Below, piece after piece: positions 5,711-28,300 of a stretch of 31,257 nucleotides of DNA (the stretch's first letter is position 1; every line of letters starts with the position of its first letter). Location: positions 1-31,257 of the forward strand of contig JBDGSJ010000006.1 in assembly GCA_042217585.1 (NCBI GenBank), written 5' to 3'. The DNA is from Candidatus Nanohaloarchaea archaeon. GTDB taxonomy: Archaea; Nanohalarchaeota; Nanosalinia; Nanosalinales; Nanosalinaceae. The position numbers and the translations under genes are program-made. The notes beneath the pieces are model-generated. The model saw only the letters and a program-made list of their open reading frames with translations, was not told the DNA's origin and did not search any database.

Positions 5711-8644
5711 TCACGGCCTGAGCAGGAACTCCGTCACGGTGGAGTGCTTGTAGTCCCTGACGTCCAGCCTCTGGTCCGCGACTATTCCCTGTATCGTGTC
5801 GCCGTCCAGTATGAAATCTGTCAGGTCGTTCATCGGCTGGTCCGCGGGCGTCGCGGTCACGGTAAGGAAGTCGTCGCCCGTCGCCTCCCGTGACTCCTCC
5901 TCGTCGAGCGTGGCGCGGTTCTGGAACGCCAGCGCGGCCTGGTGGTCGTGGCCCGAGTACTCGACGTCCACCGATGGAGGCCTGTTGGAGTTCAGCATCT
6001 TGTCGTTCTTGTCCTTGCCCCTGCCGCTGGACTTGTGGCTGACCAGGACCTCGTTGTCACCGATCTCCAGGTGTTCTCGGGAGCCGTCGGTGGTCCCCTC
6101 CATTATCTCGACCTCTCCGTCCTCTATCTTCGCCCGTGCGAAACCGTTCTCCCGGAGTCCGGCGCCGTCGATGTTGTTGTCGCCGCGGAGGTTGTTGTTC
6201 TCGTGGTTCCCGGTCCCGATGTAGGCCCTTCCGAGAGAGTCCTCCTCGATCATCTGCTCGACCCGGTCGTCGATAAGCTCCCTGACCCTGTTCAGCTGCT
6301 GGTGGAGATGCTGTGAGGGCTGCTGCAGAGTCACCCTCTTGCTGACTACCTCGTCCGCCGCCAGCTTCTCCTCTGGACCGCCCCCGGCCTCCTCTACTCG
6401 CTCCCGGACCGGACGGATCCAGCTCTCGTTGAACATGTCGCCTCTCTCTATGTAGTTCTCGGTTCCCTGGCCCCTGAAGGCGTCCCAGCCCTGCACCGCG
6501 TCACCGATATCCACGAGTATCTGGTCGTCCGGGGTCTCATCCTCTATGTAGTCTATCTCGAGCTCCAGCATGTCCTCAATCGGGGTCTGGTGGGCCCACC
6601 TGAGGCCGTGGGGCGCGCCGAGCTGGGAGTCACCGATCAGCGACACGCCCTGCATCTCGTCCTCCTTGTAGTCGAACCCGAGGACCTGGGTCTCGAAGAA
6701 CGCGCTCATCAGGTCCTCATCCTCCCTTCCGAAGGTCTCACGGAAGTCCTCCCTGAACTCGTCGGGCTCGAACTCGTCCTCAAGAGAGTGGTCATCGAGG
6801 AACTGCTCCAGCTTCCGGTCCTCGACCTCTTCAAGGAACTCCTCGACCTCGAGCTGGCGGCCTATGTTCCTGAGGTCCTCCTCCGCCCAGGCGCGGAACC
6901 TCGGCGTCTTCACGACTTTGCCGTCGACCTCCTCGTGGTCCAGCTCGGCCAGCATCACGGTGGAGTCGTACATGCCCTTCTGGTGTCTCTTGACGTCCCA
7001 GTTGGAGTCCATGCCCTCCTTCTTCGCCTCCACGACCTCCCTTCCATCCTGGAAGGTCCCGACCTGGACCGCGGCCATGATATCGGAGTCCATCCCCCTC
7101 CCCTTCCTCACGAACCTGACGCGGCCCTGTCCGTGGTGGGAGTTGATGAACAGGTCCGGGTCCATGTCGCTCATCTGCTCCCTCTGGTTTATCATCCTCT
7201 CGTGTCCGTACTTCAGCGGCACGTCCGAGTTACCGTTCAGGTTGTGCGCCGCCTGGACCACGTTGCCGTTCAGCTCGAAGGTCGCTATGTCGCCGTCGTA
7301 GACTATCTCCCGGAAGTCAACGTTGTCTATGTCCTCGTGGAGCTTCCTGTACTGCGCATCTGTCGCCTCGTTCAGTATCTCGTTCCAGTCCGCCTTGATA
7401 TTGGTCCTGCTGAGTATCTTCGCGCCGCCGGGCCCGAGCGCCTCACGGACCGCCTTCTCCGCGTTCAGCGCCCCGACCTCAGTCTTCTTCATGCTTATCG
7501 TGGTCTCGAGGTCGTCTATGGCGTCCTGTATCTCCCTGCGCCTCTCCCTCATCTCGTCGACGTGGTCCTCCGCCTCCTCCGGCACGTCAGTCTCCTCCAG
7601 CGTGTCGACGAGCTCGCCGTCGATAAGGTCCTCCTCGTCGATGCCGGTCAGCCGGTCCCTCAGGTCGCCCGAGACGTCCTCGTACTCCTCGAGGGTCTCG
7701 TTCACCTGCCGGACCGCGTCCATCATCTCGTCTATGTTCTCGTCTATCTCCTCGCCGATATCCCGGACCTTGTTCACGTAGTTCTGTATGTCGGCCTCCT
7801 TGATCTCCTTCCGGTTCTCACGTCCCTCCTCCCCGTCGGCCAGGACCACCGGGACGTCCCTGCCGATCGCGTCGGAGACCTTTCCGAACTCCTCCTCTAT
7901 GCTCTCTATCGCCATCTCGTAGTCAACTATCTTCCGGGCGAGCTCGTCCTCATCGATCGAATCATCTATCATCGCCATCACGTCGTCGACCCTGTCCTCT
8001 GAGACCACGCGGTCCCCGATGACCTCCTCCAGGGTCGAATCCTCGAGCGCCTCCTCGATGTTCTCGACGCGCTCATCGTAGTCCTCTGTCTCATCGACGG
8101 AGTCGAGAAGCTCGAGGTCCTCGTCGTTGGTTATCGAGTAGAACAGCGGGACTCTCGGGATCACGCTTCCGCCGACGTACATCCTGAACTTCTCGTCGGA
8201 GAAGTAGTCGTCTCCCTCCTCCTCACGTATCTCTGAGAGCTTGTAGGCGAGTCCGCGCCACGCCTTCGGCGATGAGAGCTTGGTCCCCGTGTTCGGCTCC
8301 CCGACCATGAGGACGTGGGCCTCTCCCTTCTCCTCAGCCCTCGCCTTCCTGTAGTCCTCGTTGACCCCAAGAGCCTCGCCGGCGAGGAAGTTCAGCTTGT
8401 CCTCCTGGCTGGAGAGGTCCGGCTTGTCCATGTAATCGGTGGAGAACGCGAACGAATACGTCTTTGTATCTTCCTCCTGGTTGCCGAAACGTTTCTCGAC
8501 CAGGACCTTTCCCTGCGGTGATTCACGCAGCTGCTCGAGGTGCGGCTCTATCTCCTCCTCAGGTATCTCCTCGCCGTCGTTGAGACGGGATACCACGTTT
8601 TCGAATCCTAAATCCTGTCCAGAGAAGCGCTCAAGGGAACTCAT
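5711..8644 (-). CDS. Large protein with two calcineurin-like (DP1-like) metallophosphoesterase domains and an acidic coiled-coil insert
   Basis: C-terminal domain: IGDSQLG, IGDAVQG, GTGNHE, VSHK, SGHDH. N-terminal degenerate copy: VGEPNTG, GGSVIP, DGEEGREN, AAHN, PDLFINSHHG, VGTFQD. Confidence 0.75.
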   Translation of the reverse strand: MSSLERFSGQDLGFENVVSRLNDGEEIPEEEIEPHLEQLRESPQGKVLVEKRFGNQEEDTKTYSFAFSTDYMDKPDLSSQEDKLNFLAGEALGVNEDYRKARAEEKGEAHVLMVGEPNTGTKLSSPKAWRGLAYKLSEIREEEGDDYFSDEKFRMYVGGSVIPRVPLFYSITNDEDLELLDSVDETEDYDERVENIEEALEDSTLEEVIGDRVVSEDRVDDVMAMIDDSIDEDELARKIVDYEMAIESIEEEFGKVSDAIGRDVPVVLADGEEGRENRKEIKEADIQNYVNKVRDIGEEIDENIDEMMDAVRQVNETLEEYEDVSGDLRDRLTGIDEEDLIDGELVDTLEETDVPEEAEDHVDEMRERRREIQDAIDDLETTISMKKTEVGALNAEKAVREALGPGGAKILSRTNIKADWNEILNEATDAQYRKLHEDIDNVDFREIVYDGDIATFELNGNVVQAAHNLNGNSDVPLKYGHERMINQREQMSDMDPDLFINSHHGQGRVRFVRKGRGMDSDIMAAVQVGTFQDGREVVEAKKEGMDSNWDVKRHQKGMYDSTVMLAELDHEEVDGKVVKTPRFRAWAEEDLRNIGRQLEVEEFLEEVEDRKLEQFLDDHSLEDEFEPDEFREDFRETFGREDEDLMSAFFETQVLGFDYKEDEMQGVSLIGDSQLGAPHGLRWAHQTPIEDMLELEIDYIEDETPDDQILVDIGDAVQGWDAFRGQGTENYIERGDMFNESWIRPVRERVEEAGGGPEEKLAADEVVSKRVTLQQPSQHLHQQLNRVRELIDDRVEQMIEEDSLGRAYIGTGNHENNNLRGDNNIDGAGLRENGFARAKIEDGEVEIMEGTTDGSREHLEIGDNEVLVSHKSSGRGKDKNDKMLNSNRPPSVDVEYSGHDHQAALAFQNRATLDEEESREATGDDFLTVTATPADQPMNDLTDFILDGDTIQGIVADQRLDVRDYKHSTVTEFLLRP

Positions 8645-8784: not shown

Positions 8785-9387
8785 TCATCTGGCCGGAACA
8801 GTCCCGTTCGGCGGACCCCCGCCCGGGTCGTTCACCGGCGCCTCTCCCGTCTCACCTATCGGTCCGCTCTCGGATACCACTGGGAGGAGGTTGTAGCCCT
8901 GCGGTCCGCGCTGGACCACCTCTATGTCGAAGAAGAACCCTGTCGAACCGCCCGCCGATACCGTGAAGGACTGCGTGACCATGAGCTTCCCCGAGGGGAC
9001 ACGGATATTGACGTTCCTGCCGGATACCTCTCCCTCGGCGTCAAGGACGTGAAGCTCTATCTTTTCGTAAGTACCGGGCGCGAGCGAGGTGTTCAGTACC
9101 GACTTCCTCTTCTCCCCCTGGACCTCGGTCAGGTCGACCGTCGGCCTCTCAAGGACCAGTTCCGTGCTGGAGTTCGAGGAGTTCCTGAAAACGACCGCCT
9201 TGGAGAAAGTCACGTTCAGGTAATCGAATTTTTCGATGGCTGTCGGCTGGTCGCTTATGTAGAGCCTGAACTCTCCTGAACTCTTCTGATCAGCACCCTG
9301 GTGGATGCAGCCCGAGACCACCGCCACAACACCCATAACGAGCAGGGCGGAGGACCTTACACTCTTTTCTTCGCTGAGATGAATCAT
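8785..9387 (-). CDS. DUF4382-domain lipoprotein
   Basis: Hydrophobic signal ending in lipobox-like VSGC; LYISDQP...LNVT, VDLT, GTYEKIEL, VPSGKL, LLPV pattern typical of DUF4382. Confidence 0.85.
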   Translation of the reverse strand: MIHLSEEKSVRSSALLVMGVVAVVSGCIHQGADQKSSGEFRLYISDQPTAIEKFDYLNVTFSKAVVFRNSSNSSTELVLERPTVDLTEVQGEKRKSVLNTSLAPGTYEKIELHVLDAEGEVSGRNVNIRVPSGKLMVTQSFTVSAGGSTGFFFDIEVVQRGPQGYNLLPVVSESGPIGETGEAPVNDPGGGPPNGTVPAR

Positions 9388-9600
9388 CGTGGAGCCTCCA
9401 TCGGCTCCCCTCTCCCATCAGGTGTTTTGCGGCCCTTCTTTTTACAGGTTTGGTCCGGATCTGAACCGGAGGAAACAGCCCCTGAGAAAGAATTAAAAGC
9501 AGTAATTCACAAGAAAACAATATGGCGGACCGGTGTGAGCCCGGATGTCAGTCCTCCATTCTCCAAAACCTTCTACTACCCGGATCTGAAGTGCGGTAAG

Positions 9601-10182
9601 ATGAGTTCAGAGCCTGCCGCGGCGGCAGGCTCGACCCCGGATATCGAGACGCGGTCCGACCACCAGCAGATCATCGACGCCCTGACGGACCGCTACCTGG
9701 AGGATTACCAGGATTCACGGTGGGACCTCGCGCTCAGGGAGGTCGAGTACTTCTACAGCGAGGAGAACTCCCCGGGGGAAAGAGATGAACTCTACGGCCA
9801 CCCGAAGGGCGAGCTCGACTTCGGGCTCGTGGACCTTGACCGGCAGGAGATAGTCTACCACGAGGTCAAATCCAGCAGGAAGTACATGGAGGACGGCCTG
9901 GAACAGATCGAGAGGCTGGAAGAGACGGTCGAGAACCTGAACGAGCACCTGGACTCGGAGTGGGATGTCGATGGCGAGGTCGTGACCCCTGAGGAGATAG
10001 ACCTGGAAGGACTGGACCCGTCGGACTACGGGGACGCTGTCTACTGTTCACGGGAGACCGCGAACCGCCTCAGGTCCTCGGATCCGTTCTCCGAGATATC
10101 CAGCCACCTCTTCGATGACGAGATACCTCTGGAGGACGCACCAGCGCTGGAAAGACAGGTTGAGGAACTCTACGCCTCCTAG
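9601..10182 (+). CDS. PD-(D/E)xK superfamily nuclease-like protein (193 aa; start moved to ATG 9601)
   Basis: REVEY...GELDFGLV...YHEVKSS...EQIER; the acidic coding signal begins at MSSEPA. Confidence 0.72.
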   Translation: MSSEPAAAAGSTPDIETRSDHQQIIDALTDRYLEDYQDSRWDLALREVEYFYSEENSPGERDELYGHPKGELDFGLVDLDRQEIVYHEVKSSRKYMEDGLEQIERLEETVENLNEHLDSEWDVDGEVVTPEEIDLEGLDPSDYGDAVYCSRETANRLRSSDPFSEISSHLFDDEIPLEDAPALERQVEELYAS

Positions 10183-10655
10183 AACATCATCACAGCTATT
10201 AACACCGAGAAACCGGTCAGTACTGCGGGGAAGACCATCACCGCGGCCCGGTGAAAGCTGGAGCCGTACAGGTAATGCGTCATGTAGATGTAACCGGTCA
10301 GCACCAGCCCGAAACCCCCGAAGAAACCGAGCGGCAACACAAGGAGCTTCATGGGTGACATCAGGCCGACCACGGTCACTATATCACCCATGTTGTTCTG
10401 CTCCGGCATCATGGCGCGGCCCAGACCGTAGAAGACCACTATCTCCGCCGCGAAACTCACAGCGAGTATAGATAGCATGCTGTCCATGAAACCCCTGGAA
10501 GTCTCGCTCTGCTGGGAGAAACCCTGGACGATCTCCGCGATCGCCTGGTCCGGCATCAGACCGCTGAGGCTAAGAAATAGTATAGCAGCCACGATGAGGA
10601 AAAGAGCGGCGAACTCCTCACGCTCGGAGGGTTCTATACCCAGAAAATCAGACAT
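10179..10655 (-). CDS. Membrane protein, Yip1-like topology
   Basis: About five hydrophobic helices; HYLYGSSFHRAA resembles the Yip1 C-terminal turn. Confidence 0.6.
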   Translation of the reverse strand: MSDFLGIEPSEREEFAALFLIVAAILFLSLSGLMPDQAIAEIVQGFSQQSETSRGFMDSMLSILAVSFAAEIVVFYGLGRAMMPEQNNMGDIVTVVGLMSPMKLLVLPLGFFGGFGLVLTGYIYMTHYLYGSSFHRAAVMVFPAVLTGFSVLIAVMMF

Positions 10656-10685
10656 GCTTGAGATTTCTACCCGGACATTAAAAAA

Positions 10686-11732
10686 TCACAGTAGTACCAG
10701 GAACAGCGGGACAGCCACCATCATGAACGAGAAACCTGCGAAAGCACGATCATCAGTCATCAGCCGGTCAAAGACGAACTTCAGCCCCCTGAAGTACCGG
10801 TCGTAGAACAGCATGAACAGCACCGTCACCGCGGAAGCCGCAAGACCGAGCACGAGAAGGACCCTCATCCCTGCCTCTGTCCCCACTACCGTTGCGGCCA
10901 GCAGCGTATCGACGAGAGTCGTGACGTTCGCACCGAGGATATACGGCACCACTTCCTCCCTCCTTATCAGGTCCTGATTGTAGAGCGGAACTATCAACCC
11001 GAGAGAAAGCGACACGCTCGCCGTGAGGACCGTGAGCAATCCTCCCGCGAGCAGTGAGAGCCACCGGTTGTCCAGCAGGAACCTCACGTAGTCTCCAGCC
11101 AGCCTGTTCCTTCCGAGGTCCGCGAACGCCCTGTCAAACCTGTTCAGCGCGAGGAAGAGGAACGCGACCGCCGCGGCCAGCGAAAATGAAGGACCGAGAA
11201 AACCCTGGAATAACCTGACCGAGGGAGAGAAAAGAGCACCCAGAGAATACCGGAGGATTGCCGGCCCCTGGACCTCAAGGAAACCGAGCCCGAGATTCTC
11301 TGTCAGCAGGTAGCCTGCTGCGGTCGCTGGGATGTAGACCGAGTAAGTCACGAGGAACGAAAGTATTCCGACCGACACAGAGTCCACTATACTCTCGTTC
11401 TCCCCGCTGAAGTACTCAAGAACACCTATAAGTACAACGATAAAGGTTGCGCCAAGCCTTGAACCCGATGCAAGAAGGAAATACTGCCCGGAGTCCAGGA
11501 TACCCTCCCTCAGGAATGCAAGCCCTACAGCAGCAACAGTCGACCCGTTCAAGAGCATATAGGAAGCGAACCATCCCGAGCCGAGAGCGGAAAGATCATC
11601 AGTAATCACGTCCGAGAGCACAGACCTCAGGAAGGGAGCAAGCTCGGACGTGGAGGCGGTCAGGAGCTGAAGCGAGAATACGAACACAAGAACCGCAGTA
11701 AGCCCGTAGAAAACCCTTTTCGCCGCGCTCAT
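10686..11732 (-). CDS. Na+/phosphate symporter (NptA/SLC34-like, no PhoU domain)
   Basis: Repeated motifs LLNGSTVAA...GSRLGAT and TASVSLSL...PYILGANVTTL; many TM helices. Confidence 0.85.
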   Translation of the reverse strand: MSAAKRVFYGLTAVLVFVFSLQLLTASTSELAPFLRSVLSDVITDDLSALGSGWFASYMLLNGSTVAAVGLAFLREGILDSGQYFLLASGSRLGATFIVVLIGVLEYFSGENESIVDSVSVGILSFLVTYSVYIPATAAGYLLTENLGLGFLEVQGPAILRYSLGALFSPSVRLFQGFLGPSFSLAAAVAFLFLALNRFDRAFADLGRNRLAGDYVRFLLDNRWLSLLAGGLLTVLTASVSLSLGLIVPLYNQDLIRREEVVPYILGANVTTLVDTLLAATVVGTEAGMRVLLVLGLAASAVTVLFMLFYDRYFRGLKFVFDRLMTDDRAFAGFSFMMVAVPLFLVLL

Positions 11733-11774
11733 CACAGGCAACTTTTAACCTTCCGGACCTAAAAGGGTACCTGT

Positions 11775-12287
11775 ATGGGGCTGGAGAAGGAACCCACGGA
11801 AGCCGATAAAGAGGAATACGAGGAAGCCACGGTGCTCGGGGACGCCACCCCTGAGGAGTTCGCAGGCCTCGAGGAGAGGACAGGACCTAAAGAGGATATC
11901 AACCTGATAGTCAGGACCGAACCGAGCGACGGCGGCAAGAAGGTCCTCGCCGTCACCAACAAGCGCGCCATCTCCTTCACTTCAGGAGACACGCGCCTTC
12001 TCGGCGAGAAAAACACCTTCCAGGACCTGAAGATAGACTCCATCGAGGACATAGAGGTCCAGGAGAGAGAGGGATTTGACAGGATGAAGGTTTCCGCCGC
12101 TGGACCGGAGCGGACTTTTATGGTACCCCCCGGCACCGGAGTGAAGGTGGCCGGCCACATCAGGGAGATACAGGAGAATCCGGACCCCACCAAACAGCTT
12201 GAGAAACTGGAGAAGAAGAGGGAGATGGGAGCTATCTCACCGGAAGAGTACGAGAAGGAAAGGGACCGGATCGAGGACATGATGTGA
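11775..12287 (+). CDS. Bacterial-type PH domain plus C-terminal SHOCT domain protein
   Basis: VLAVTNKRAISF (bPH-like); QLEKLEKKREMGAISPEEYEKERDRI (SHOCT pattern). Confidence 0.8.
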   Translation: MGLEKEPTEADKEEYEEATVLGDATPEEFAGLEERTGPKEDINLIVRTEPSDGGKKVLAVTNKRAISFTSGDTRLLGEKNTFQDLKIDSIEDIEVQEREGFDRMKVSAAGPERTFMVPPGTGVKVAGHIREIQENPDPTKQLEKLEKKREMGAISPEEYEKERDRIEDMM

Positions 12288-12361
12288 TACCGCACAACGC
12301 CGTCCTTCCCGGGAAACGAAGAGTTATTTTAAAAGCGTTATTACCTTAATGTGACAGTGTA

Positions 12362-12952
12362 ATGGGGGAGCGACTGCGGTTGAAGGACCTTGAGAACATG
12401 TACCACATGAAGAAGCGCGAAGAGCTTCAGCGCCGTCTCTCGGACAGCTTCAGGAAGGCAGGGACCGACGCCAGAGAGTACGGGATAGAGACTCCTGAGG
12501 ACCTTGACGTGGAATTCGTCCCGGGTATTTACAGGCAGGGATCGTGGTCCGGGAAGTACGACGGCGAACAGATACTGGTCAGCGGTCCATCTGGACCGAA
12601 CTACTCGGTTGACAGCGTGATATCAAGAGGTCTTCTCCACGCCGAGAACACGCGCAGGATGGGAGACGAACCCCAGAGTTCACAGGTGCTCAAGGCCCGC
12701 GGCATAGAGACCCTCTACGGCCTCTACCGGGAGGGCCTGACCTCCGACCGGGAGAAGATGGGTGTGGCGCTCCAGCAGACCCGGAAGATGTTCAACAGGA
12801 ACCCAGCCTACCCGGACAGGGCCGGCGACGCGATAGCCCGGGTCCCCGCGGACATGGTGAAGCTGAACGGCGAGATAGAGAAAGAAGAGATGAAGGAGAT
12901 CATAGACGGTTTCATGGCCGAGGTCGAGGAAGATTACAGCCAGAGGCGTTGA
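12362..12952 (+). CDS. Hypothetical protein
   Basis: Typical codon usage; AT-rich promoter region upstream. Confidence 0.7.
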   Translation: MGERLRLKDLENMYHMKKREELQRRLSDSFRKAGTDAREYGIETPEDLDVEFVPGIYRQGSWSGKYDGEQILVSGPSGPNYSVDSVISRGLLHAENTRRMGDEPQSSQVLKARGIETLYGLYREGLTSDREKMGVALQQTRKMFNRNPAYPDRAGDAIARVPADMVKLNGEIEKEEMKEIIDGFMAEVEEDYSQRR

Positions 12953-13798
12953 TCAGACAGCTCTCGCCTGATACACGTTGTTCCTCTGTGACTCCTCCAG
13001 CTCTCCCGCGTCGACCTTCTCCCTGTAGACGATATCACCATCGCCGTAGACTATGACCTCTTCGCCAGTGAGTTCCGCCTCCACGCGGTCCATATCACCG
13101 GCTGTCAGGTCGACCAGTAGCTCCCTGCCGCCATCCATGTCGTATGTATCCATGTAATCAGGAGTTTCTGCCTCCTCAGGCTCCTCCAGCTCTCCGTCGA
13201 AGTACTGACTCACAGCCGGATCGTCGGGCGAAGCCGCTATCTCGCTTCCTGTCTGTCTCAGTATGCTCGAATCCATCCGGTCCGGAAGACCGTCCTCGGT
13301 GTAAAGCACCGGGACCACGAAGTTGTTCTGGTCCAGCGCATCCTCGACGACGTCCTCGTAGCCGTTCGTGACGAACCTGCTGGACCGGAGCCGGTCCTGG
13401 AGCACCTCGCCCCGTCGGACCGTAACCGGGTAAACCTCGTCCAGACCGTCGAAGACCATGTAGGCCGGTATCTCGTCCTCGCCGTCCATCATGGATATAA
13501 CGTCATCGCTGGCGAAAACCGGGTTCTCGTCCTTTTCCGAAAGGGAGCTCCGGAAGTCCTCCACGAAGTCCTGTATCTTCTCGTGGAGCTGGTCCTCGTC
13601 TTCGCCGCCGTACTCCATGTACAGGTCGCTGGACATGTTGAAGCTCGGCGCAGACATCGCCCGGGTCTCGGGATCTGTGAACTGCGCGAATTCGACATTC
13701 CACGGTGTCTCCGAGCTGAAACGGCGGTGGCTTGCGACAGGCTCTCCCAGCTCCTCCGCAAGGTCCTCATCCAGCACCTCATGCACTCTATTCGCCAT
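12953..13798 (-). CDS. Acidic protein with a C-terminal Hsp20/alpha-crystallin-like domain
   Basis: C-terminal MDTYDMDGGRELLVDL...DRVEAELTGEEVIVYG...RNNVYQARAV follows the alpha-crystallin strand pattern; N-terminal about 200 aa unrecognised. Confidence 0.6.
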   Translation of the reverse strand: MANRVHEVLDEDLAEELGEPVASHRRFSSETPWNVEFAQFTDPETRAMSAPSFNMSSDLYMEYGGEDEDQLHEKIQDFVEDFRSSLSEKDENPVFASDDVISMMDGEDEIPAYMVFDGLDEVYPVTVRRGEVLQDRLRSSRFVTNGYEDVVEDALDQNNFVVPVLYTEDGLPDRMDSSILRQTGSEIAASPDDPAVSQYFDGELEEPEEAETPDYMDTYDMDGGRELLVDLTAGDMDRVEAELTGEEVIVYGDGDIVYREKVDAGELEESQRNNVYQARAV

Positions 13799-14067: not shown

Positions 14068-14538
14068 ATGAAGATCGACGATACTGACCTCAAGATACTG
14101 GAGGAGCTCAGGGAAGACGGCAGGAGATCCCTCCGTCAGATCGCCGAGAACCTGGACCTTTCCCCCTCCACCGCCAGCAACCGGTTCAAGAAGATGAAGG
14201 AAGAGGGCGTGATAAAGGGTTTCTTCCCCGAGATCGACCATGAGGCCATAGGTTTCTCCTTCACAACTATAACCCATATCAGGGCCGCCTCCGGCGGTAT
14301 AGACACGATAAAGGAAGAGCTATCGGACCGTGGCTTCGTCTCAAGCTACTACACCGTAACGGGAGACACAGATATAATCGCGATATGCGGATTCCTGAAC
14401 AGAGAGAAGATGAACAGGCACCTGCAGGACCTCCAGTCGCTCGAAGGTATAGAGGACATCCGGACGAACGTTGTGCTGGAGGCAGAAGGTATGAGAGGAT
14501 CGTTGGATTTTTCACCTATCAAGGAGGAAATTGACTAG
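14068..14538 (+). CDS. Lrp/AsnC family transcriptional regulator
   Basis: IDDTDLKILEELREDGRRSLRQIAENLDLSPSTASNRFKKM HTH; YTVTGDTD RAM-domain motif. Confidence 0.95.
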   Translation: MKIDDTDLKILEELREDGRRSLRQIAENLDLSPSTASNRFKKMKEEGVIKGFFPEIDHEAIGFSFTTITHIRAASGGIDTIKEELSDRGFVSSYYTVTGDTDIIAICGFLNREKMNRHLQDLQSLEGIEDIRTNVVLEAEGMRGSLDFSPIKEEID

Positions 14539-15650
14539 AGCTCTTCCTGTGTTAGAAGCCGGACCTGACCGGAGGAAACTGTATCAGATATAGATTTACC
14601 CACGGCGTACTCAGCGCCGATCTCCTCCGCCTTCTCGACCGCCTCACCGTCCAGCTCGCCGTCGATCAGGAGTGAATGCGCCTCCTGTTCCAGGCCGCCT
14701 ATCCTGTCGGCCGGAACCTTCTCAAGGATCTCTCCCGCCTCATCCACCGAGTTCGCCGCGCGCGTCCCGGTGAGATCCTTCATGAGTTCGGAGAAACGTT
14801 CCCTCAGTTCGTCCTCGAGCTCCGTCTCCACATCTGGTTCGTCGACGTACTTCACCGGCGAGCGGTCCCTGAGCGCCTCGTGGACCTGCTCCTTCGAGAG
14901 CTCCTCGACCTCCTTGTCCTCCGGCGCCCGCGCGACGTACTCGGGCTCGGCCTTCTCCTTCAGCTCCTTCAGTATCAGGTCTCCGCCGCGGTCCCCGTCG
15001 AGGAACGCCGTCAGCCTCCTCTCCTCCGCTATCTCCGCTATCTTTGGCGGGACCGATGTACCGCCGATACCCAGGCAGTTCTTTACGCCGTGCTTCAGGA
15101 GGTTGAGGACGTCGGCCTTCCCCTCCACTATTATCAGTTCGTCGGAGGTCCTGGCGTCAGGCCCGGCGACGAATCCCTCGAACTCCGTGACCTCCTTCTC
15201 ACGGACCTCGTGCTTCAGTTCATCGGTCATCTCCTGCTTGTCCGGTTTCTCGTCGTTCAGGTCCTCGAGCAGCTGTTTCGCCCTCTTGACGATGTAGTCT
15301 CTCTTGTTGACCCGGACATCGCGGATCTCCTCTATCCTGATGTCCGCATTGCTGGGTCCAACCTGCTCGATGGTCTCGAGAGAAGCCGCGAGAAGCGCTG
15401 TATCGGTCGCGTCCATAGAGGAAGGTATCTTTATCTTCGCGGTCGAGGAGCCGTCCTCATCGTGGACCTCGACATCCATCCTGCCGACCTTTCCGCGGTC
15501 GTTCAGTTCCCTGAGATCCATCTGCTCTCCCATCAATCCTTCCGTCTGTCCAAAGATCGCTCCTATGACGTCAGATTTCTCTATCATACCGGAGGCATCC
15601 AGCTCCGCCTCGATCATGTACTTCACGTTGTCCTGCGCTATCTTACCCAT
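14535..15650 (-). CDS. dnaG: Archaeal DnaG (TOPRIM; exosome-associated)
   Basis: SDVIGAIFGQTEGL N-terminal motif; IIVEGKADV and AFLDGDRGG TOPRIM motifs; ATG 15650 preceded by GGTGG. Confidence 0.95.
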   Translation of the reverse strand: MGKIAQDNVKYMIEAELDASGMIEKSDVIGAIFGQTEGLMGEQMDLRELNDRGKVGRMDVEVHDEDGSSTAKIKIPSSMDATDTALLAASLETIEQVGPSNADIRIEEIRDVRVNKRDYIVKRAKQLLEDLNDEKPDKQEMTDELKHEVREKEVTEFEGFVAGPDARTSDELIIVEGKADVLNLLKHGVKNCLGIGGTSVPPKIAEIAEERRLTAFLDGDRGGDLILKELKEKAEPEYVARAPEDKEVEELSKEQVHEALRDRSPVKYVDEPDVETELEDELRERFSELMKDLTGTRAANSVDEAGEILEKVPADRIGGLEQEAHSLLIDGELDGEAVEKAEEIGAEYAVGKSISDTVSSGQVRLLTQEEL

Positions 15651-15894
15651 CGTATCCACCCAGTCTTTCCTTTATCTCGTCCTCCGGGAGGTCCACCTTT
15701 ATCTTCTTCCTGCTGGACCTGTGCCCGGACACTATCCCGGGTCTCTCTCCGAGCAGGTCCTCCAGAAACTCCAGCAGCGCGCGGTTCGCTCTCCCGTTCT
15801 CGGGCTCCGCCGGGACCTTGACCACGGGATAGGTCTTCATCTCGACGCCGTACCCGTCGGCCCCCGGCTTCACCTTGACGTTTATCGTCGCCAT
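15643..15894 (-). CDS. DUF167/YggU (UPF0235) family protein
   Basis: VKVKPGA...VKVPAEPENGRANRALLEFL...IVSGHRSSRK; start moved to ATG 15894. Confidence 0.9.
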   Translation of the reverse strand: MATINVKVKPGADGYGVEMKTYPVVKVPAEPENGRANRALLEFLEDLLGERPGIVSGHRSSRKKIKVDLPEDEIKERLGGYDG

Positions 15895-15917
15895 GGTACC
15901 TAGTAAAATTATATTTG

Positions 15918-15983
15918 GCTGCCCCGTAACACAGACAGTCATCCCTGTCCCTTAGAGGTCTTGCCTGCTGACCGCAGAGCAGC
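15918..15983 (-). ncRNA. Candidate structured RNA or 5' leader (three-way junction) upstream of DUF167-dnaG
   Basis: GCUGCUCUG/CGGGGCAGC closing helix with internal GGUC/GACC and GGACAG/CUGUCU hairpins; G-U pairs favour the minus strand. Confidence 0.3.
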
Positions 15984-16024: not shown

Positions 16025-16648
16025 TCACTCGAAGAACTCTCTTTCCTCGGGGAAGTTCTCGTGGAGCAGCTGGTTGGTCTTGGTCTGGACCGGCTCCTCC
16101 CCGTGGTACTTACGGAGGTAGTTGAAGTAGTCAGCGAGCCGCTCCCTGGCGTACTCGGTGTCATGGACCAGTATGCCCTCGAGGATGGTCTCCTCGAACA
16201 CCCTCCTGAAGAACCGGTTCAGCGGGTTGGCGATGATCTTCGGCAGGAAGCTGATCCCTGAGGGCAGGTCGTAACGGACGTAGACATGGCCGATGTACTC
16301 GACGGTCCCGTAGTTGTTGTCGCCGGACGGAGGTATCTGGGTCTCTATCTCTATCTCAAGCTTCATCTCCCCTCTCCCGCTGGGAAGTTCATCTGTCACA
16401 TGCATCGTGGACCCGAAGCCCCCGCTGTCGATGTTCTGCTCGAAATGGGTCTCCGTCGGGGAGCCGAGGTCCATGTTCTGGCTGAGTAGCTGCTTGTGGC
16501 CTTCGTATATCTGTACTATCTGCGGGCTCTCGTACCACTCCAGCTTGTTCTGGAGTTCTGTCCACTCCCCTGCGAACAGCGGTGCCTCCCAGACCGTGCC
16601 GTCCGGCGTCTCGAGGAACATCTCCCTAAGCCATTCTCCCAGCGTCAT
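16025..16648 (-). CDS. Uncharacterised protein, paralog C of a tandem triplet (207 aa; start moved to ATG 16648)
   Basis: ATGA overlap with the upstream gene's stop; shares motifs with the two upstream genes. Confidence 0.8.
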   Translation of the reverse strand: MTLGEWLREMFLETPDGTVWEAPLFAGEWTELQNKLEWYESPQIVQIYEGHKQLLSQNMDLGSPTETHFEQNIDSGGFGSTMHVTDELPSGRGEMKLEIEIETQIPPSGDNNYGTVEYIGHVYVRYDLPSGISFLPKIIANPLNRFFRRVFEETILEGILVHDTEYARERLADYFNYLRKYHGEEPVQTKTNQLLHENFPEEREFFE

Positions 16649-17262
16649 CCGGACCACGGCGGCTCGTAGTGCGATGCTCCTGATTTTGAGATCGAGCTCT
16701 CCACCCCGAACTTCTGCCTCATCAGGTCGTGAAGGTGGATGACGAGCTCCTCGGCCTCTTCCTCGTATCCCTCGACCTCCTGCCTGTAGAAGATGTTGTA
16801 CCATATCCCCGCGACTATCCTGTAGAGCTTGGAGTCGTGAAAACCGTCCGAACCGCCGTCGAGATGGGTGTCGGGCACGCGGACCTTCGGAGTCCTTGTG
16901 ATCGGCTTCCCCATCCACGGCAGGGGATTCCCCTTCGGGTAGACAGTCACTACCTCGGAGCTGGTCTCTATCTCCGCCTTCATCACGCCCTCCCGCTCCA
17001 TCTCCTGGACCCCCTCGACCGGCGCAGAGTTCCAGGAGAGGTCCAGCCTTATCGCGGTGTACGGGCTCTTCTCCTTGTACGCGTGTATCTCGATGTCGTC
17101 CTCGGGGTCGCCGACTGAGAACTCCATCCTTCCCTCCTCGATTATATCCATCCCCAGCTCCTCCACCAGGACGTCCTTAAGCCCCCTGTAAATCCGGGCG
17201 GAGTCCTCCTCCACGAACAGGTGGTCCTCCTTCGACCCGCCATGCTCCCTGAAAGTCACCAT
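16645..17262 (-). CDS. Uncharacterised protein, paralog B of a tandem triplet
   Basis: TGATG overlap with the upstream gene; acidic; shared motifs. Confidence 0.82.
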   Translation of the reverse strand: MVTFREHGGSKEDHLFVEEDSARIYRGLKDVLVEELGMDIIEEGRMEFSVGDPEDDIEIHAYKEKSPYTAIRLDLSWNSAPVEGVQEMEREGVMKAEIETSSEVVTVYPKGNPLPWMGKPITRTPKVRVPDTHLDGGSDGFHDSKLYRIVAGIWYNIFYRQEVEGYEEEAEELVIHLHDLMRQKFGVESSISKSGASHYEPPWSG

Positions 17263-17714
17263 CAGGTCTCAGCCCCCAGCGCTCTTCTCATCCTTTCCAT
17301 GAGTTCGTCAAGGTTGTTTTTCAGCGGTTCCCTGTACTGCGCCCGGGTCTCGCCGTAGAGGAACTTGTGGAAGAGAGAGCGGTACGCGTAGTACCACAGC
17401 GTCTCCTGATAGTCCTTTTCATCGGGGTAACTGGTTATCAGCTTCGCCTTGACCTGTATGTCGACCTTCCCGTCCTTCTTGTCGACCTCGAACAGTATAT
17501 CGTACTCGCCCCGGGAGTACCGGTCGAAACCCTCGACCGCCTTCAGCTTGGTCCTGACCCTTCCCTCGTCGACATCGTTGAAGTACTTCTCCTCGGAGAC
17601 CTCGTCGAAACCCATCTTCTCCGTCAGGAGATCCCTCATCTCGGCGTATGCGGTGTCAGGGTCGTCGAGCTGGACCGTGGTCCTCCGCCGGTCCACCTCC
17701 TCGGTGATATCCAT
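17262..17714 (-). CDS. Uncharacterised protein, paralog A of a tandem triplet
   Basis: T-rich TATA-like element about 28 nt upstream; shared motifs. Confidence 0.82.
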   Translation of the reverse strand: MDITEEVDRRRTTVQLDDPDTAYAEMRDLLTEKMGFDEVSEEKYFNDVDEGRVRTKLKAVEGFDRYSRGEYDILFEVDKKDGKVDIQVKAKLITSYPDEKDYQETLWYYAYRSLFHKFLYGETRAQYREPLKNNLDELMERMRRALGAET

Positions 17715-17764
17715 ACAGTAGGATTAACGATAGAGAGTAAAAAAAGGATTACCAGCGGAGAGGT

Positions 17765-18301
17765 TCAGCGGCACTCGGGACAGAGCATCATCCCGTTGTG
17801 CTCCTCCAGGTCCTCCGAGTAGTTCTCGCAGCTCTCACAGACCCCGCTGGAGGTCTCCGGGGAAGACGGAACGGTTTCAGGACCCTCGAACTCGGATTCC
17901 TCGGACATGACCTCGGCGAAACCGGGCCACGCCCTCAGGATGTCGCTCTGGGTCACGATACCGACCAGCATGTCGCCCCGGACCACGGGGACCCTTGAGA
18001 TGCTGTTCTGGACCATCGCCATGGCGACGTCGTCAAGCAGTTCGTCCTCCTCCGCGACGATGAGGTCCGAGCTCATTATCTCCTCGACCGAGGTCTGCCT
18101 CGGGTCCAGTCCCTCGGCGGTGACCTGGTAGGCTATGTCCCTGCACACGACGACACCTACCGCGTCGCCCTCATCGACTACGACAAGGCCTCTTATGTCC
18201 TCCTCCTTCAGCTTGTTGGCGGCCTCCACAACATTAGCGTCGTTTTCGATGGCTATTACGCCTTCAGTCATTACCTCCTTGAGCTCGACTTCAGATTCCA
18301 T
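17765..18301 (-). CDS. CBS-pair protein with C-terminal zinc ribbon
   Basis: Two CBS repeats (KEVMT...IRGLVVVD...GVVVCRDI; EEIMSS...ISRVPVV...GIVTQSDI) and GVCESC...LCPECR. Confidence 0.92.
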   Translation of the reverse strand: MESEVELKEVMTEGVIAIENDANVVEAANKLKEEDIRGLVVVDEGDAVGVVVCRDIAYQVTAEGLDPRQTSVEEIMSSDLIVAEEDELLDDVAMAMVQNSISRVPVVRGDMLVGIVTQSDILRAWPGFAEVMSEESEFEGPETVPSSPETSSGVCESCENYSEDLEEHNGMMLCPECR

Positions 18302-18342
18302 ATGACGGGATAACACCTTGAACTCTAATAATGTTTCGGTGG

Positions 18343-24885: not shown

Positions 24886-24913
24886 CCCCCACCCCCTTGT
24901 TTCCACTGGAAAC
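24886..24913 (-). repeat. ORB1 (origin recognition box)
   Basis: Minus strand GTTTCCAGTGGAAACAAGGGGGTGGGGG: ORB dyad plus G-string. Confidence 0.92.
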
Positions 24914-24937
24914 TCAAACTGCCGAAAGTTCTGTGGT

Positions 24938-24988
24938 ATAACGGTGTTATAATACTATCACGGTGTTATCAGAATATATCACCGTTAT
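24938..24988. repeat. Three near-palindromic 13-mers at a 19-bp period
   Basis: ATAACGGTGTTAT (24938), ATCACGGTGTTAT (24957), ATATCACCGTTAT (24976; reverse complement ATAACGGTGATAT). Confidence 0.75.
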
Positions 24989-25017
24989 CTTCTGCTCACC
25001 CACCCAGCTCCATTCAA

Positions 25018-25044
25018 TTTCCACGTGAAATCAAGGGGTGGGGG
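25018..25044 (+). repeat. ORB2
   Basis: TTTCCACGTGAAATCAAGGGGTGGGGG. Confidence 0.88.
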
Positions 25045-25271: not shown

Positions 25272-25297
25272 CCTCACCCCCTCGTTTCAAGTGGAGA
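25272..25297 (-). repeat. ORB3
   Basis: Minus strand TCTCCACTTGAAACGAGGGGGTGAGG; inverted relative to ORB2, G-strings facing each other across about 227 bp. Confidence 0.85.
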
Positions 25298-25307
25298 TCC
25301 TGTTCTG

Positions 25308-28300
25308 TCACCGGAGTTCAGTCCGGTCGAGCCGGACCTGAAGTCTCTTCACCGCTGACCTCAACTCGTCAAGCTTCCGCTCGAACCTCTCCCGTGTCAC
25401 TCCTGAATAGCTGACCTTAGTCCCTCCCGAAATCACCTCACGGAAATGACCGGATGAGGACCGGAAAGACCGGACGATCCTTCCAGGTCTCTCCACGATC
25501 TTTACCCTGTAACCGTCGTTCTCGAGCACCATCCGCCGGGACGAACTCGAGGAATGGACCTCCAGCCTAGCCTCCTGGCCGTTCCAGATAGCCTCAGTAC
25601 CTCCTGGACTGACCTGGTACATCAGGCTCTGCCGGGGACCCGAGATGCTCCACCTGAACTCGCGGCCGCCTGAACTCCGGGATACACTCCCCGGACCTCT
25701 GACGCGGACCGACACATCCTTACCGTTCACACTGACCGAGGTCCTTCCCTTGCTCACCCCGATCACCGTCCATCTGATCCTGCGCTCTCCACCACTCTCC
25801 AGGACCACGGTTCTCCTGAGGTCCTCCGTCAGGCCCGGCACCAGTCCCTCACCTGTATCCAGTACCAGCTCCTTCCTGACAGCAAAGTCAGTCGGATTCT
25901 TAACCACCGCCACCACATCGCCAGAAACACCCTTCTTCAGGTCAGGGGCAAAAAGGATCACGCGAGAGGACCTGAGATCGAAGCTTCCCGAGTCCTGCGC
26001 TATCTTCTTCCTCCCGGAGATCAGGTAGGCCTCGATCCTGTGTTTTCCAGGTGAAACGGAGGGGTGTAAGACGTTCTTGCCCTCAGAAACCTTCAGCTTC
26101 CTCACAGTAGAGTTTCCATCGACAACCAGGACCAGCCTACCCCGGAAGCTTCTCTCTGAGCTGATAACCAGTTCCATTTCCCCGGAGTCTCCGGATAAGT
26201 CAAGTGTGACTGGTGCGGAGTAATTCAGGGTCAGAGAGGAGGACTCGAGGATACGGTGACCGGATCCTGTCTTCTGGACCGCTGCCTGGACGTACACGAA
26301 CCCGTCTTTCGAGAGGTTGAACCGGGAGGTCTCTCTCGGGAACCTCTGATAGCCCAGGGACCGGTTGAAGTACCTGCCGCCGTGGGAGAGAAGAGTGTTC
26401 CGTGGCAGGTCTATCTCGGCGGACCTGAAATCCTCCGAGATCTCCACGCTGTCAACCGACGCGTTCAAGGGTATCTCCCCCGACTCCACGTAGATAGGGA
26501 CCACCGGAGCCAGATCCCTGAGAAGGACGTCGCCGGTATCTAAGACGGGGAAACGGTTCCCGCCGGACCTCACCCACTCCGGTTCAGGCTCCGCGGAAAG
26601 CGTCACCGTGCAGGTGGTCCCGGAGCACTCCTTGGACCTCTCCATCCCCTTTTCCGGGACAGGGTCCTTCCTCATCTCCGGGTTCCCGTAGAGGACCGCA
26701 GAGCTCTCCATCTTTTTCCTTACACCTGTCTTCAGGGGAGTGTTCGGGTCGTAGACGAAGAAGCCCTGTCTCAGCGAGTTGACCGCTCTCCTGAGCGACT
26801 CTCCTACCCTCTTTCCGTGGAGGAAGAACCTCGCGGCGACAGGGTAAGAGTACTGGGCGTAGTTCACCGAGGAGTAGCCGATGTAGGACGCCGCTCCTCT
26901 CTCGATGAAGCTCCGCCTCATCTCGCCGCCGTAGGAACCGGCCAGGTCCGACGAATCCCAGACGATGGGCTGGTCCAGCTCCGGGACCTGGGACGGCCGG
27001 AAACTGAACGAACCCGTGTACCGGTCCTTCACCAGACTCGTATCGTTGTTCGGCAGCACCCAGGCGGTGGAGTTACCCCGACCGCCGTAGTAGACCACGT
27101 CCGACTTCTTGAGGCTGGAATTGAGGTTCTCCGGGGTGATCCTGGGATGCTTCTCCGGGAAGACGAAGGCGTACAGCAGTTTCACCGCACCGTTCTGGAC
27201 CGCCTCCCTCATCGACTCACCCTCCGCGATATCCATCTCCTCAAGCCTGTCAAAACCTTTCTCCGGGCTGAAATCGAAACCCTCCCACTGCAGCTCCAGG
27301 TACAGCTCCAGAGACTGCTCCGCGTAGCTCGCACCCTTCAGGACGATGACAGCGTTCTGGACTGAGTTCGCGGCGCTGTCAGAGATAAAACTCTTGAGCC
27401 GGTTCTTTAACGAATCAGTCTTCGAGAGGAAGGACTTCACGCTAACAGGGGTCAGGCCCAGCAGGAACTCGACCGGGCGGACCCGGTACTCGACAAGCCT
27501 CGTCGTACTGAAACCCTCCCTCTGGAGAACGTCCTCGATCTTCTTGCCATGCCACATGCCCCCGCCGGCGGCCCCCAGAATCACAGGCCAGTTGCTGTGC
27601 AGGTACTCCGCCGCCACCAGTCCCTGCTTCTCCGGATCACGGACCAGGGACGAATGGTACAGCTCCGAAGCCAGAGCCGTCTCATCCGGGTAAACCCCTA
27701 CACCCGCCTCCAGCTCACGGTCCGCCCACAGGTTACCGTACCTGAGATACGAGCTGAATCTCGAGCCGTCGCCCGGGTCCGAACCCAGCAGACCCTCCTC
27801 GACAGGATCATCCAGCCTGAACGGAGGACCTTCAAGGATCGTGACGTACCGACCCTGGAGCACCGTGTTCCTGTTATCCCCGATGATCCCGAACACGGTC
27901 TGGATCCGGTCCTTCAGGACCTCAGGGTCCTCCGAGTACTGGACCGGGAGAGCACCCTGCCTCGCCGCCATGTACGACGCCAGCACCCCGGAATCAGAAC
28001 TGAGGTCCGCCGCCACGACGTGGTTCGGCCTGAACTCTTCGATGAACATCTCCCGGATCTCAGAAAGAGACCGGTCCGTGAAATCCCTGTAATCGCCCCG
28101 CGGCTCGAACACCAGGGAAGCGTTCCTCTCAGCAGCCAGAGGAGCAAGAAGAACAGCCTTCCTCCTCGACTCCACATAAAACCTCTTCTCACGCGGAAAA
28201 CTTCCGTCCAGGTCCACCCTCTCCAGACCGGTCACATCACCGACCCCCACAGGCTCACCAGCCCTTACAGCCTCCTCACGGACCTCACCGTACCGATCCG

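Follow-up and report, generated by a model that had tools for sequence, protein, structure and literature searches.

A tandem gene triad of Nanohaloarchaeota and its candidate core DPANN protein family with a predicted helix-grip/TBP-like fold

The closest described counterparts of the proteins analysed here are the START/StART-like (Lam2, Lam4, Aster) and Bet v 1/SRPBCC domains, the PRELI/Ups1 (with Mdm35) phospholipid shuttles, and the cavity-less TBP-like domains (KA1, spermine synthase N-domain/AdoMet decarboxylase, phosphoglucomutase C-domain, adaptin appendage, SZT2 repeat and IntS9-IntS11 C-terminal domains). The KA1/TBP-like topology is a five-stranded sheet with two helices on one face, and several cavity-less TBP-like domains dimerise or bind membranes. 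The genes in question, A, B and C (the triad), occupy 16025..17714 of contig JBDGSJ010000006.1 of a Candidatus Nanohaloarchaea archaeon (assembly GCA_042217585.1), of which we analysed a stretch of 31,257 nucleotides (nt), called here the window; relatives with names also put the window in the Nanohaloarchaeota. An earlier note made from the letters alone had described three coupled genes at this place, and both its coordinates and its overlaps are correct: the stop codon of A and the start of B have one base in common (TGATG), and the stop of B and the start of C overlap by four (ATGA).

Like the START/StART-like and Bet v 1/SRPBCC domains, the model of A wraps a curved antiparallel sheet around a long helix at the C-terminus (Z 9.0-9.8 for 101-113 residues), but it has five strands and one N-terminal helix where START has seven strands (PMC12139934; this and the other papers cited were available in part, and what we say of them is limited to those parts). 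An extra aromatic helix before the gripped one, the identity of 4-14% and the tandem paralogues also set the triad apart. The PRELI/Ups1 shuttles align over about 120 residues (Z 9.0-9.2) and hold rank 1 in Foldseek, but the triad proteins are shorter, archaeal and cytoplasmic, the TM-score is 0.33, and the Z is tied with those of unrelated domains. A partner resembling Mdm35 was not noticed, although no search aimed at it was made. The five-stranded sheet with two helices on one face is present in the model of A, and KA1 chains match it at Z 8.8-9.3 over 91-93 residues. The cavity-less TBP-like domains follow the same small sheet-plus-two-helix plan (Z mostly 8.6-10.8, 7.5 for IntS9-IntS11), but their matches span mostly 83-113 residues, whereas the proteins of the triad stand alone, their strands are longer and they have the aromatic helix in addition.

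Among archaea, the Asgard START protein StarLok1 has a cationic membrane-binding face and transfers lipids in vitro (PMC12139934). The Asgard proteins are likewise archaeal helix-grip proteins, but they are true seven-stranded START members recognised by InterPro, and the available part of that study mentions DPANN as sampled taxa only, without describing the triad family. We found no description of the family in the open full-text literature, a search that does not cover subscription journals, and it may sit unnamed in supplements. In the parts available, one study reports conserved pilus and coiled-coil loci and nothing pointing to the family (PMC11291902), another refers to unannotated DPANN modules without detail (PMC8204110), and a third presents a single-copy core without mention of it (10.64898/2026.05.13.725050). 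We therefore regard the triad as part of a putatively undescribed core DPANN family, whose fold class, as modelled, is a known one.

Predicted fold and reach of the family

Searching 1.84 billion representatives with a profile produced 101 matches. After removal of two long unrelated-looking proteins, two chimeric-looking ones and fragments, the remaining matches and closer relatives were aligned, giving 113 members. None of A, B and C matched a Pfam, NCBIfam or PHROG family, and the 113 members had no consistent match; no SRPBCC-type Pfam or NCBIfam family was among their hits at E 0.05. The PRELI family PF04707 did not match either, and the best hit of a PDB sequence search had E 0.14 (none below E 0.1). 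The earlier note's claim of an uncharacterised family is borne out by these blank searches.

The model of A (pLDDT 88, pTM 0.79) has the order beta1-alpha1-beta2-beta3-beta4-beta5 (strands 2-15, 38-47, 52-62, 67-78 and 83-95) followed by a 40-residue C-terminal helix (106-145). We predict a five-stranded helix-grip/TBP-like fold for the family, extended to B and C by profile homology, and not membership of START, because the model of A has five strands instead of seven. In the wide search the top match was the StART-like domain of Lam2 (Z 9.8, root-mean-square deviation (rmsd) 2.8, 113 residues aligned), and Lam4 and Aster are also among the closest solved structures. Other matches were the phosphoglucomutase C-domain (9.6), the spermine synthase N-domain (9.5, and with 10.8 the highest in a second look), Bet v 1-like proteins and SZT2 (both 9.4), AdoMet decarboxylase (9.3), Ups1 (9.0, rmsd 3.7, 121 aligned) and KA1 (8.8). 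Lam2 and all of these are tied, and the group of phosphoglucomutase, SZT2, AdoMet decarboxylase, KA1 and adaptin appendage domains spans 8.6-9.6. The sheet of the model does grip the long C-terminal helix, and the alignments with Lam2, Bet v 1-like proteins and Ups1 span nearly the whole model (Z 9-9.8). Foldseek, which the earlier note had proposed as a check of the fold, placed Ups1 first, but at a TM-score of 0.33 and with unrelated folds tying in the wide search. The best named look-alikes in the Atlas were CoxG (TM 0.60) and PRELI (0.59, below the Atlas naming bar); an Atlas search with C gave nothing at 0.9 or above among named clusters, and near the top of a viral fold library stood uncharacterised proteins only (TM at most 0.46). 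Sliding-clamp-like and HORMA folds, which we also considered, are not among the listed matches, which does not exclude them. In a complex prediction of A, B and C, B scored 0.48 against 0.30 for a control that keeps A and B; we have not used it as evidence.

The distribution was surveyed in Nanohaloarchaeota, Nanobdellota and Aenigmarchaeota-type archaea. The family is present in 59/66 Nanohaloarchaeota genomes, including all 28 near-complete ones, and the 113-row alignment detects it in 243/251 Nanobdellota genomes (the tallies over these 251 include the unpublished G314 and G315). Named distant members belong to Aenigmarchaeota and Woesearchaeota/Nanoarchaeota, in agreement with the Atlas clusters. 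Tandem pairs are found in 77/80 Aenigmarchaeota-type loci, the other three ending early; this set is the best 80 of 477 metagenome loci, with the taxon inferred from the cluster of the query. Among 40 Nanobdellota loci, picked for long contigs from 150 matches listed, three copies occur in 17 (16 of them in tandem), two in 16 and one in seven, one of these seven holding a barely detectable second copy. These loci support the earlier note's suggestion of similar tandem genes in other DPANN archaea. Five of six titled loci are triads. Two of the six (L124 and L126) carry the title "uncultured Methanosarcinales archaeon" but are Woesearchaeota-like, and these titles are probably mislabels, since L124 is nearly identical in genes and order to the Woesearchaeota locus L125; even so, they speak against a strict DPANN-only claim. 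Longer, fused forms did not appear among 8000 candidates, which is weak evidence.

Genomes of about 1 Mb in three phyla therefore keep this family almost without exception, often duplicated, yet it bears no COG, arCOG, KO, Pfam or InterPro label. This near-constant retention together with the missing label suggests a core, unnamed function of host-dependent DPANN archaea.

Paralogy, history and expression of the triad

Single-sequence BLASTP finds only a weak match between A and B (E 0.004, 20% identity) and none between A and C or B and C. The pairwise profile comparison that the earlier note had proposed was run with profiles built from 33, 34 and 32 orthologues of A, B and C, and related all three pairs: A/B at 99.3% (E 1e-20), A/C at 97.1% (E 5e-11) and B/C at 98.0% (E 2e-13). 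The four sets of motifs quoted earlier are all present, in register in these alignments. By their profiles, A, B and C are true paralogues.

A quick tree of 114 rows unites the sequences of A, those of B and those of C, each in a group of its own (support 94, 88 and 99), does the same for each of the two Aenigmarchaeota-type copies, and puts all 48 Nanobdellota copies on the same side of a branch with support 100. As the groups of A, B and C extend across the sampled Nanohaloarchaeota families, the triplication is, as the earlier note had held, an old one, and on the tree it is older than the sampled Nanohaloarchaeota. Approximately unbiased (AU) tests on 40 of the rows rejected a grouping of A with copy 3 and with copy 1 of Nanobdellota (p values of 1e-5 and far below), while a grouping of A with Aenigmarchaeota copy 1 was not rejected (p 0.057). 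One-to-one orthology of the triads between phyla is thus rejected, with the caveats of a simple model, long branches, halophilic composition, possible gene conversion, and test groups named only after the first tree had been inspected. The triads of Nanohaloarchaeota and Nanobdellota appear to have arisen separately. Repeated tandem expansion, together with the single-copy loci, suggests an ancestral homo-oligomer that turned heteromeric.

Across 35 loci from 35 Nanohaloarchaeota genomes, B follows A in all and C follows B in 33, the remaining two running off the contig after B. With start codons chosen by eye, the junctions fall within -17 to +16 nt in 31/35 (A-B) and 31/33 (B-C) cases. True overlaps occur in a minority of relatives (8/35 and 4/33, respectively). 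An all-A/T hexamer beginning at -34 to -27 precedes A in 29/35 loci, B in 2/35 and C in 2/33; Shine-Dalgarno (SD)-like 4-mers show the opposite pattern (3/35, 33/35 and 27/33). From its position and conservation we infer that the TATA-like box is a leaderless promoter of the triad, which would give a leaderless A-B-C transcript separate from polC-CBS.

The orthologues in Candidatus Nanohalobium constans (LC1Nh_0005-0007), annotated as "hypothetical", were all three detected by proteomics (PMC7443923), with 5, 3 and 4 peptides and protein abundance indices (PAI) of 0.33, 0.25 and 0.33 (dataset S2a). The orthologue of A was seen solely in the secretome fraction; a secreted A is rejected, because that same fraction contains DP2 and RadA. 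In Nha. antarcticus, three genes at the same position encode 147, 209 and 219 amino acids (aa), matched by position and length and not by sequence, and the available data list no COG, arCOG, KO, Pfam, InterPro, TMHMM or SignalP entry for them (PMC11035636).

The three proteins differ in their additions to the common core. B carries an insert of about 30 residues containing Pro and Trp ahead of the aromatic helix, and a C-terminal tail; C has a Trp/Phe-rich N-terminal extension found in this family only, and a cationic amphipathic segment at about residues 133-150. A 297-aa open reading frame (ORF) for C starting at GTG is an over-extension, as relatives begin at the methionine of the ATGA overlap.

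The conserved helix and a tentative lipid-binding reading

The residues most conserved in the 113 members are E41 (98%), Y120 (89%), T94 (87%), D64 (85%), Y96 (83%) and Y23 (80%). Positions 102-120, in the first third of the C-terminal helix of A, are mostly aromatic or hydrophobic, and R112 and K117 are basic in 72-73% of members. Basic residues at 112, 117, 124, 143 and 61 are found in 62-85%. The exposed strand positions are variably charged and form no conserved basic patch. Judging from the alternation along the strands, E41 and residue 61 would point towards the helices.

The helix had been called aromatic and amphipathic. Aromatic it is, but its amphipathicity is weak in A (moment 0.23, aromatic on most faces), intermediate in B (0.34-0.42) and clear only in C (0.55, with a charge of +4). 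For residues 104-121 of A the interfacial score is -5.1, and a score as low is reached by 3 of 271 acidic soluble-type ORFs of the genome; the corresponding counts are 10/271 for B and 20/271 for C, with a background that may include the triad genes. By these scores and by its conserved aromatic and basic residues the helix would be suited to a membrane surface, which agrees with the possible membrane association proposed earlier. None of the three proteins has a transmembrane or signal segment; a transmembrane protein is rejected, the top 19-residue hydropathy being 1.4 and no member having a transmembrane stretch.

We tentatively favour, as a possibility and not as an expectation, the reading of the triad as a lipid-binding oligomer peripheral to the membrane, in cells most of which do not synthesise the lipid backbone. 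A single leaderless promoter would serve A, B and C, translation of B and C starting anew at SD sites within the transcript, and the homo-oligomer of the ancestor would have become a hetero-oligomer through separate tandem duplications in each phylum. The products would assemble into a small oligomer at the cytoplasmic side of the membrane, anchored through the aromatic helix (102-120) with a basic stripe at 104, 112 and 117. A polar site (E41, the basic residue at 61, D64, T94, Y96, Y120, R124 and Y127) might hold a head group, and the purpose might be lipid handling, namely the uptake or distribution of host-derived membrane lipids; these last two are the weakest steps.

A hetero-oligomer of A, B and C is plausible from the tight junctions, the similar low abundance of the three orthologues and the tandem expansions that led, more than once and separately, to two or three copies. 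A strict three-subunit stoichiometry does not extend to the whole family, as other phyla often carry pairs or single copies. The lipid part draws on the folds that lie closest, on the helix with its conserved aromatic and basic residues, on lipid-gene neighbours in some Aenigmarchaeota-type loci, and on the almost constant presence of the family in lineages in which geranylgeranylglyceryl phosphate (GGGP) synthase is rare: members of that family were found in 3/52 Nanohaloarchaeota genomes and, weakly, in 16/251 Nanobdellota genomes, in a search whose control matched in 7/14. Incomplete lipid pathways are common in cluster-2 DPANN (PMC7414124), and Nha. antarcticus takes up host lipids selectively, by a mechanism that its authors leave open (PMC11035636). 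The cavity-less KA1 alternative would likewise be membrane-linked, a KA1-containing fragment binding acidic phospholipids (PMC4686854). As a separate observation, G017:C1:107309-108070 is the only strong GGGP synthase-family match among the 52 Nanohaloarchaeota genomes and was possibly acquired.

Several points weigh against the lipid-binding reading. The fold search does not single out lipid carriers, which tie with cavity-less domains; Foldseek TM-scores reach only 0.2-0.37, and the five strands and single N-terminal helix of A contrast with the seven-stranded START sheet, so that a lipid-sized cavity may be absent. Residues 101-120 are less certain in the model, the aromatic helix being its least confident part (pLDDT 64-67), and this helix could be buried between subunits. 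Lacking a signal peptide, the proteins could not reach the host membrane unless a conduit is present. Lipid-synthesis neighbours occur in two Aenigmarchaeota-type lineages only, being absent beside the 40 Nanobdellota loci and the Nanohaloarchaeota loci, and they indicate that certain carriers may produce lipid precursors at least, while the commoner neighbours (nucleotidyltransferase, CBS, Obg-like GTPase, dnaG) point away from lipids. Finally, the link to lipid auxotrophy is a lineage-level correlation among kin, with cluster-1 DPANN outside the search.

For the question of how DPANN archaea acquire host lipids, the triad proteins offer a direct bench handle, and should the lipid-binding reading fail, the family would still be among the best handles on DPANN-specific cell biology.

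Genomic neighbours and other readings

The window has cdc6, DP1, DP2 (polC) and CBS upstream of the triad and DUF167 and dnaG downstream (Table 1), which agrees with the earlier placement between polC-CBS and DUF167-dnaG at about 7 kb from the origin. Of 20 long Nanohaloarchaeota loci, 16 have DUF167 and/or dnaG downstream. Upstream of cdc6, some 7.2 kb from the triad, inverted repeats with G-strings, which we take to be origin recognition box (ORB)-like, surround an AT-rich stretch (24886-25044), with a third copy at 25272-25295; repeats and AT-rich stretch are likely the replication origin.

Table 1. Coordinates of the triad, its promoter candidate and the neighbours discussed (window positions unless a genome (G), contig (C) or locus (L) is given; G000 is the window genome)
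Feature	Position	Strand	Remark
Gene A	17262..17714	-	150 aa, compact member of the triad
Gene B	16645..17262	-	205 aa, paralogue
Gene C	16025..16648	-	207 aa, paralogue
T-rich TATA-like box	17739..17747	-	25-33 nt 5' of the start of A
CBS-pair protein with C-terminal four-cysteine ribbon	17765..18316	-	neighbour of the triad
DUF167 and dnaG	14535..15942	-	genomic context downstream of the triad
Barrel-like protein and nucleotidyltransferase	G000:C33:58843-60379; L065:2254-3927; L094:946-1890		
Large coiled-coil protein	L167:1252-2637; L093:3726-5456		no family match
Lipid-precursor genes beside the family	L094:7190-8002; L111:8954-9880; L092:8775-9944		

The position of the triad had suggested to the earlier note a role in replication or the cell cycle, that is, a factor acting with polymerase D, Cdc6 or the origin. 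DP2 does lie upstream in 19/20 long Nanohaloarchaeota loci, the probable origin is 7 kb away in the window, and the abundance of the triad proteins is like that of Cdc6 (PAI 0.35, PMC7443923). Nevertheless, DP1, DP2 and cdc6 are next to the family in 0/80 Aenigmarchaeota-type loci (33 of which reach 8 kb) and 0/40 Nanobdellota loci. The triad also has what appears to be a promoter of its own, six Nanohaloarchaeota loci carry kilobase insertions between CBS and A, replication proteins are absent from the top fold matches of A, and archaeal DnaG is described as an RNA-binding exosome subunit (PMC4227792, PMC3672285). The claim does not survive these comparisons, and we consider such a factor very improbable.

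CBS is the one neighbour of the window cluster that often recurs outside Nanohaloarchaeota, beside the family in 34/35 Nanohaloarchaeota, 9/40 Nanobdellota and 0/80 Aenigmarchaeota-type loci; in four Nanobdellota loci it stands between a nucleotidyltransferase and the family. In N. constans the CBS-pair protein is far more abundant than the triad (PAI 2.4, PMC7443923). The nucleotidyltransferase is near the family in 26/80 Aenigmarchaeota-type and 12/40 Nanobdellota loci, an Obg-like GTPase in 36/80 and 9/40, and dnaG in 0/80 and 4/40. A 560-aa barrel-like protein with invariant His, Asp and Glu is near the family in 40/80 Aenigmarchaeota-type loci; followed by the nucleotidyltransferase with an intact-looking GS..DxD motif, it recurs in three phyla. 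The triad might thus be a partner or target of a DPANN core module (nucleotidyltransferase, endonuclease-IV-like barrel, CBS), handling RNA or signalling with nucleotides through the binding of RNA or a small ligand. The recurrence of these genes, including dnaG and the Obg-like GTPase, would fit, as would the METTL16-U6 complex (Z 7.9) and the IntS9-IntS11 C-terminal heterodimer (Z 7.5) among the fold matches, and the conserved polar residues might accommodate a nucleotide no less than a head group. However, each neighbour is absent from most loci of at least one phylum, the nucleotidyltransferase of the window genome is on another contig, the exposed strands have no conserved basic patch, the RNA-linked matches rank below the lipid-binding ones, and the aromatic helix is left unexplained. 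We judge this role rather unlikely.

A protein of 460-600 aa and unknown family is encoded divergently beside the pair in 60/80 Aenigmarchaeota-type loci but in only 2/40 Nanobdellota loci; elsewhere in the genome it is found, in single copy, in 44/52 Nanohaloarchaeota and 127/251 Nanobdellota genomes, the latter count being probably an undercount, as many first looks had no candidate. It was not found in the window genome, where contig C33 breaks at the place where the gene may lie. In at least three Nanohaloarchaeota loci the barrel-nucleotidyltransferase unit comes directly after this large coiled-coil gene, and a small coiled-coil gene follows the pair in 44/80 Aenigmarchaeota-type loci. 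The model of the large protein repeats, in an alpha/beta core, the element order of the triad (strand, helix, strand, three strands, helix), except that a helical insert of 180 residues interrupts it behind the second strand.

These observations bring in another reading, in which the triad would be the structural adaptor or ring within a DPANN-specific machine that serves host attachment, division or a conduit between cells. The large coiled-coil-hairpin protein would be built into it, and the fold would be a protein-protein platform as in adaptin appendages or SZT2, with no lipid cargo. This reading would account for the linkage of the large protein, for its repetition of the order of the triad and for the small coiled-coil gene, and cavity-less scaffold domains do tie at the top of the fold search. 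On the other hand, comparison of the large protein with the triad gave no significant homology (0.3% over its full length and no more than 3%, p about 0.013, over slices), its near absence beside the Nanobdellota family is unexpected, its fold searches, filled by the coiled coil and not probing the sheet domain, gave generic coiled coils only, and the abundance of the triad orthologues is lower than one would expect of a major structure. Such a machine seems to us somewhat unlikely.

Returning to lipid binding, its boldest form would make the family the missing lipid-uptake machinery of cluster-2 DPANN: an anchored helix-grip oligomer that sorts host lipids at the contact site, with subunits duplicated per phylum and differing in lipid preference, and with the large coiled-coil protein possibly as conduit. 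We hold this version to be unlikely; if true, it would explain the selective recruitment of lipids by Nha. antarcticus and would represent an archaeal lipid-transfer system separate from START proteins. There is also a small chance that the triad does something other than bind lipids, act as a scaffold, serve the module or take part in replication.

Isopentenyl phosphate kinase, above the cut-off, is encoded just downstream in 10/80 Aenigmarchaeota-type loci, and GGGP synthase-like and glycerol-1-phosphate (G1P) dehydrogenase-like genes, below the NCBIfam cut-offs, are nearby in 5/80 each, from which part of the Aenigmarchaeota may make archaeal lipid precursors. In 3/40 Nanobdellota loci (L196, L206 and L208) the family is directly downstream of genes that by eye are proteasome beta subunit-like and beta-CASP ribonuclease-like. 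Elsewhere in the window, a pair of very large ORFs on the minus strand, one of 977 aa (5711-8644) and one of 1373 aa (25308-29429), lack a significant match in Pfam, and 8785-13798 holds several ORFs without family match together with a DUF4382 protein, a Na+/phosphate cotransporter and a PH-SHOCT protein.

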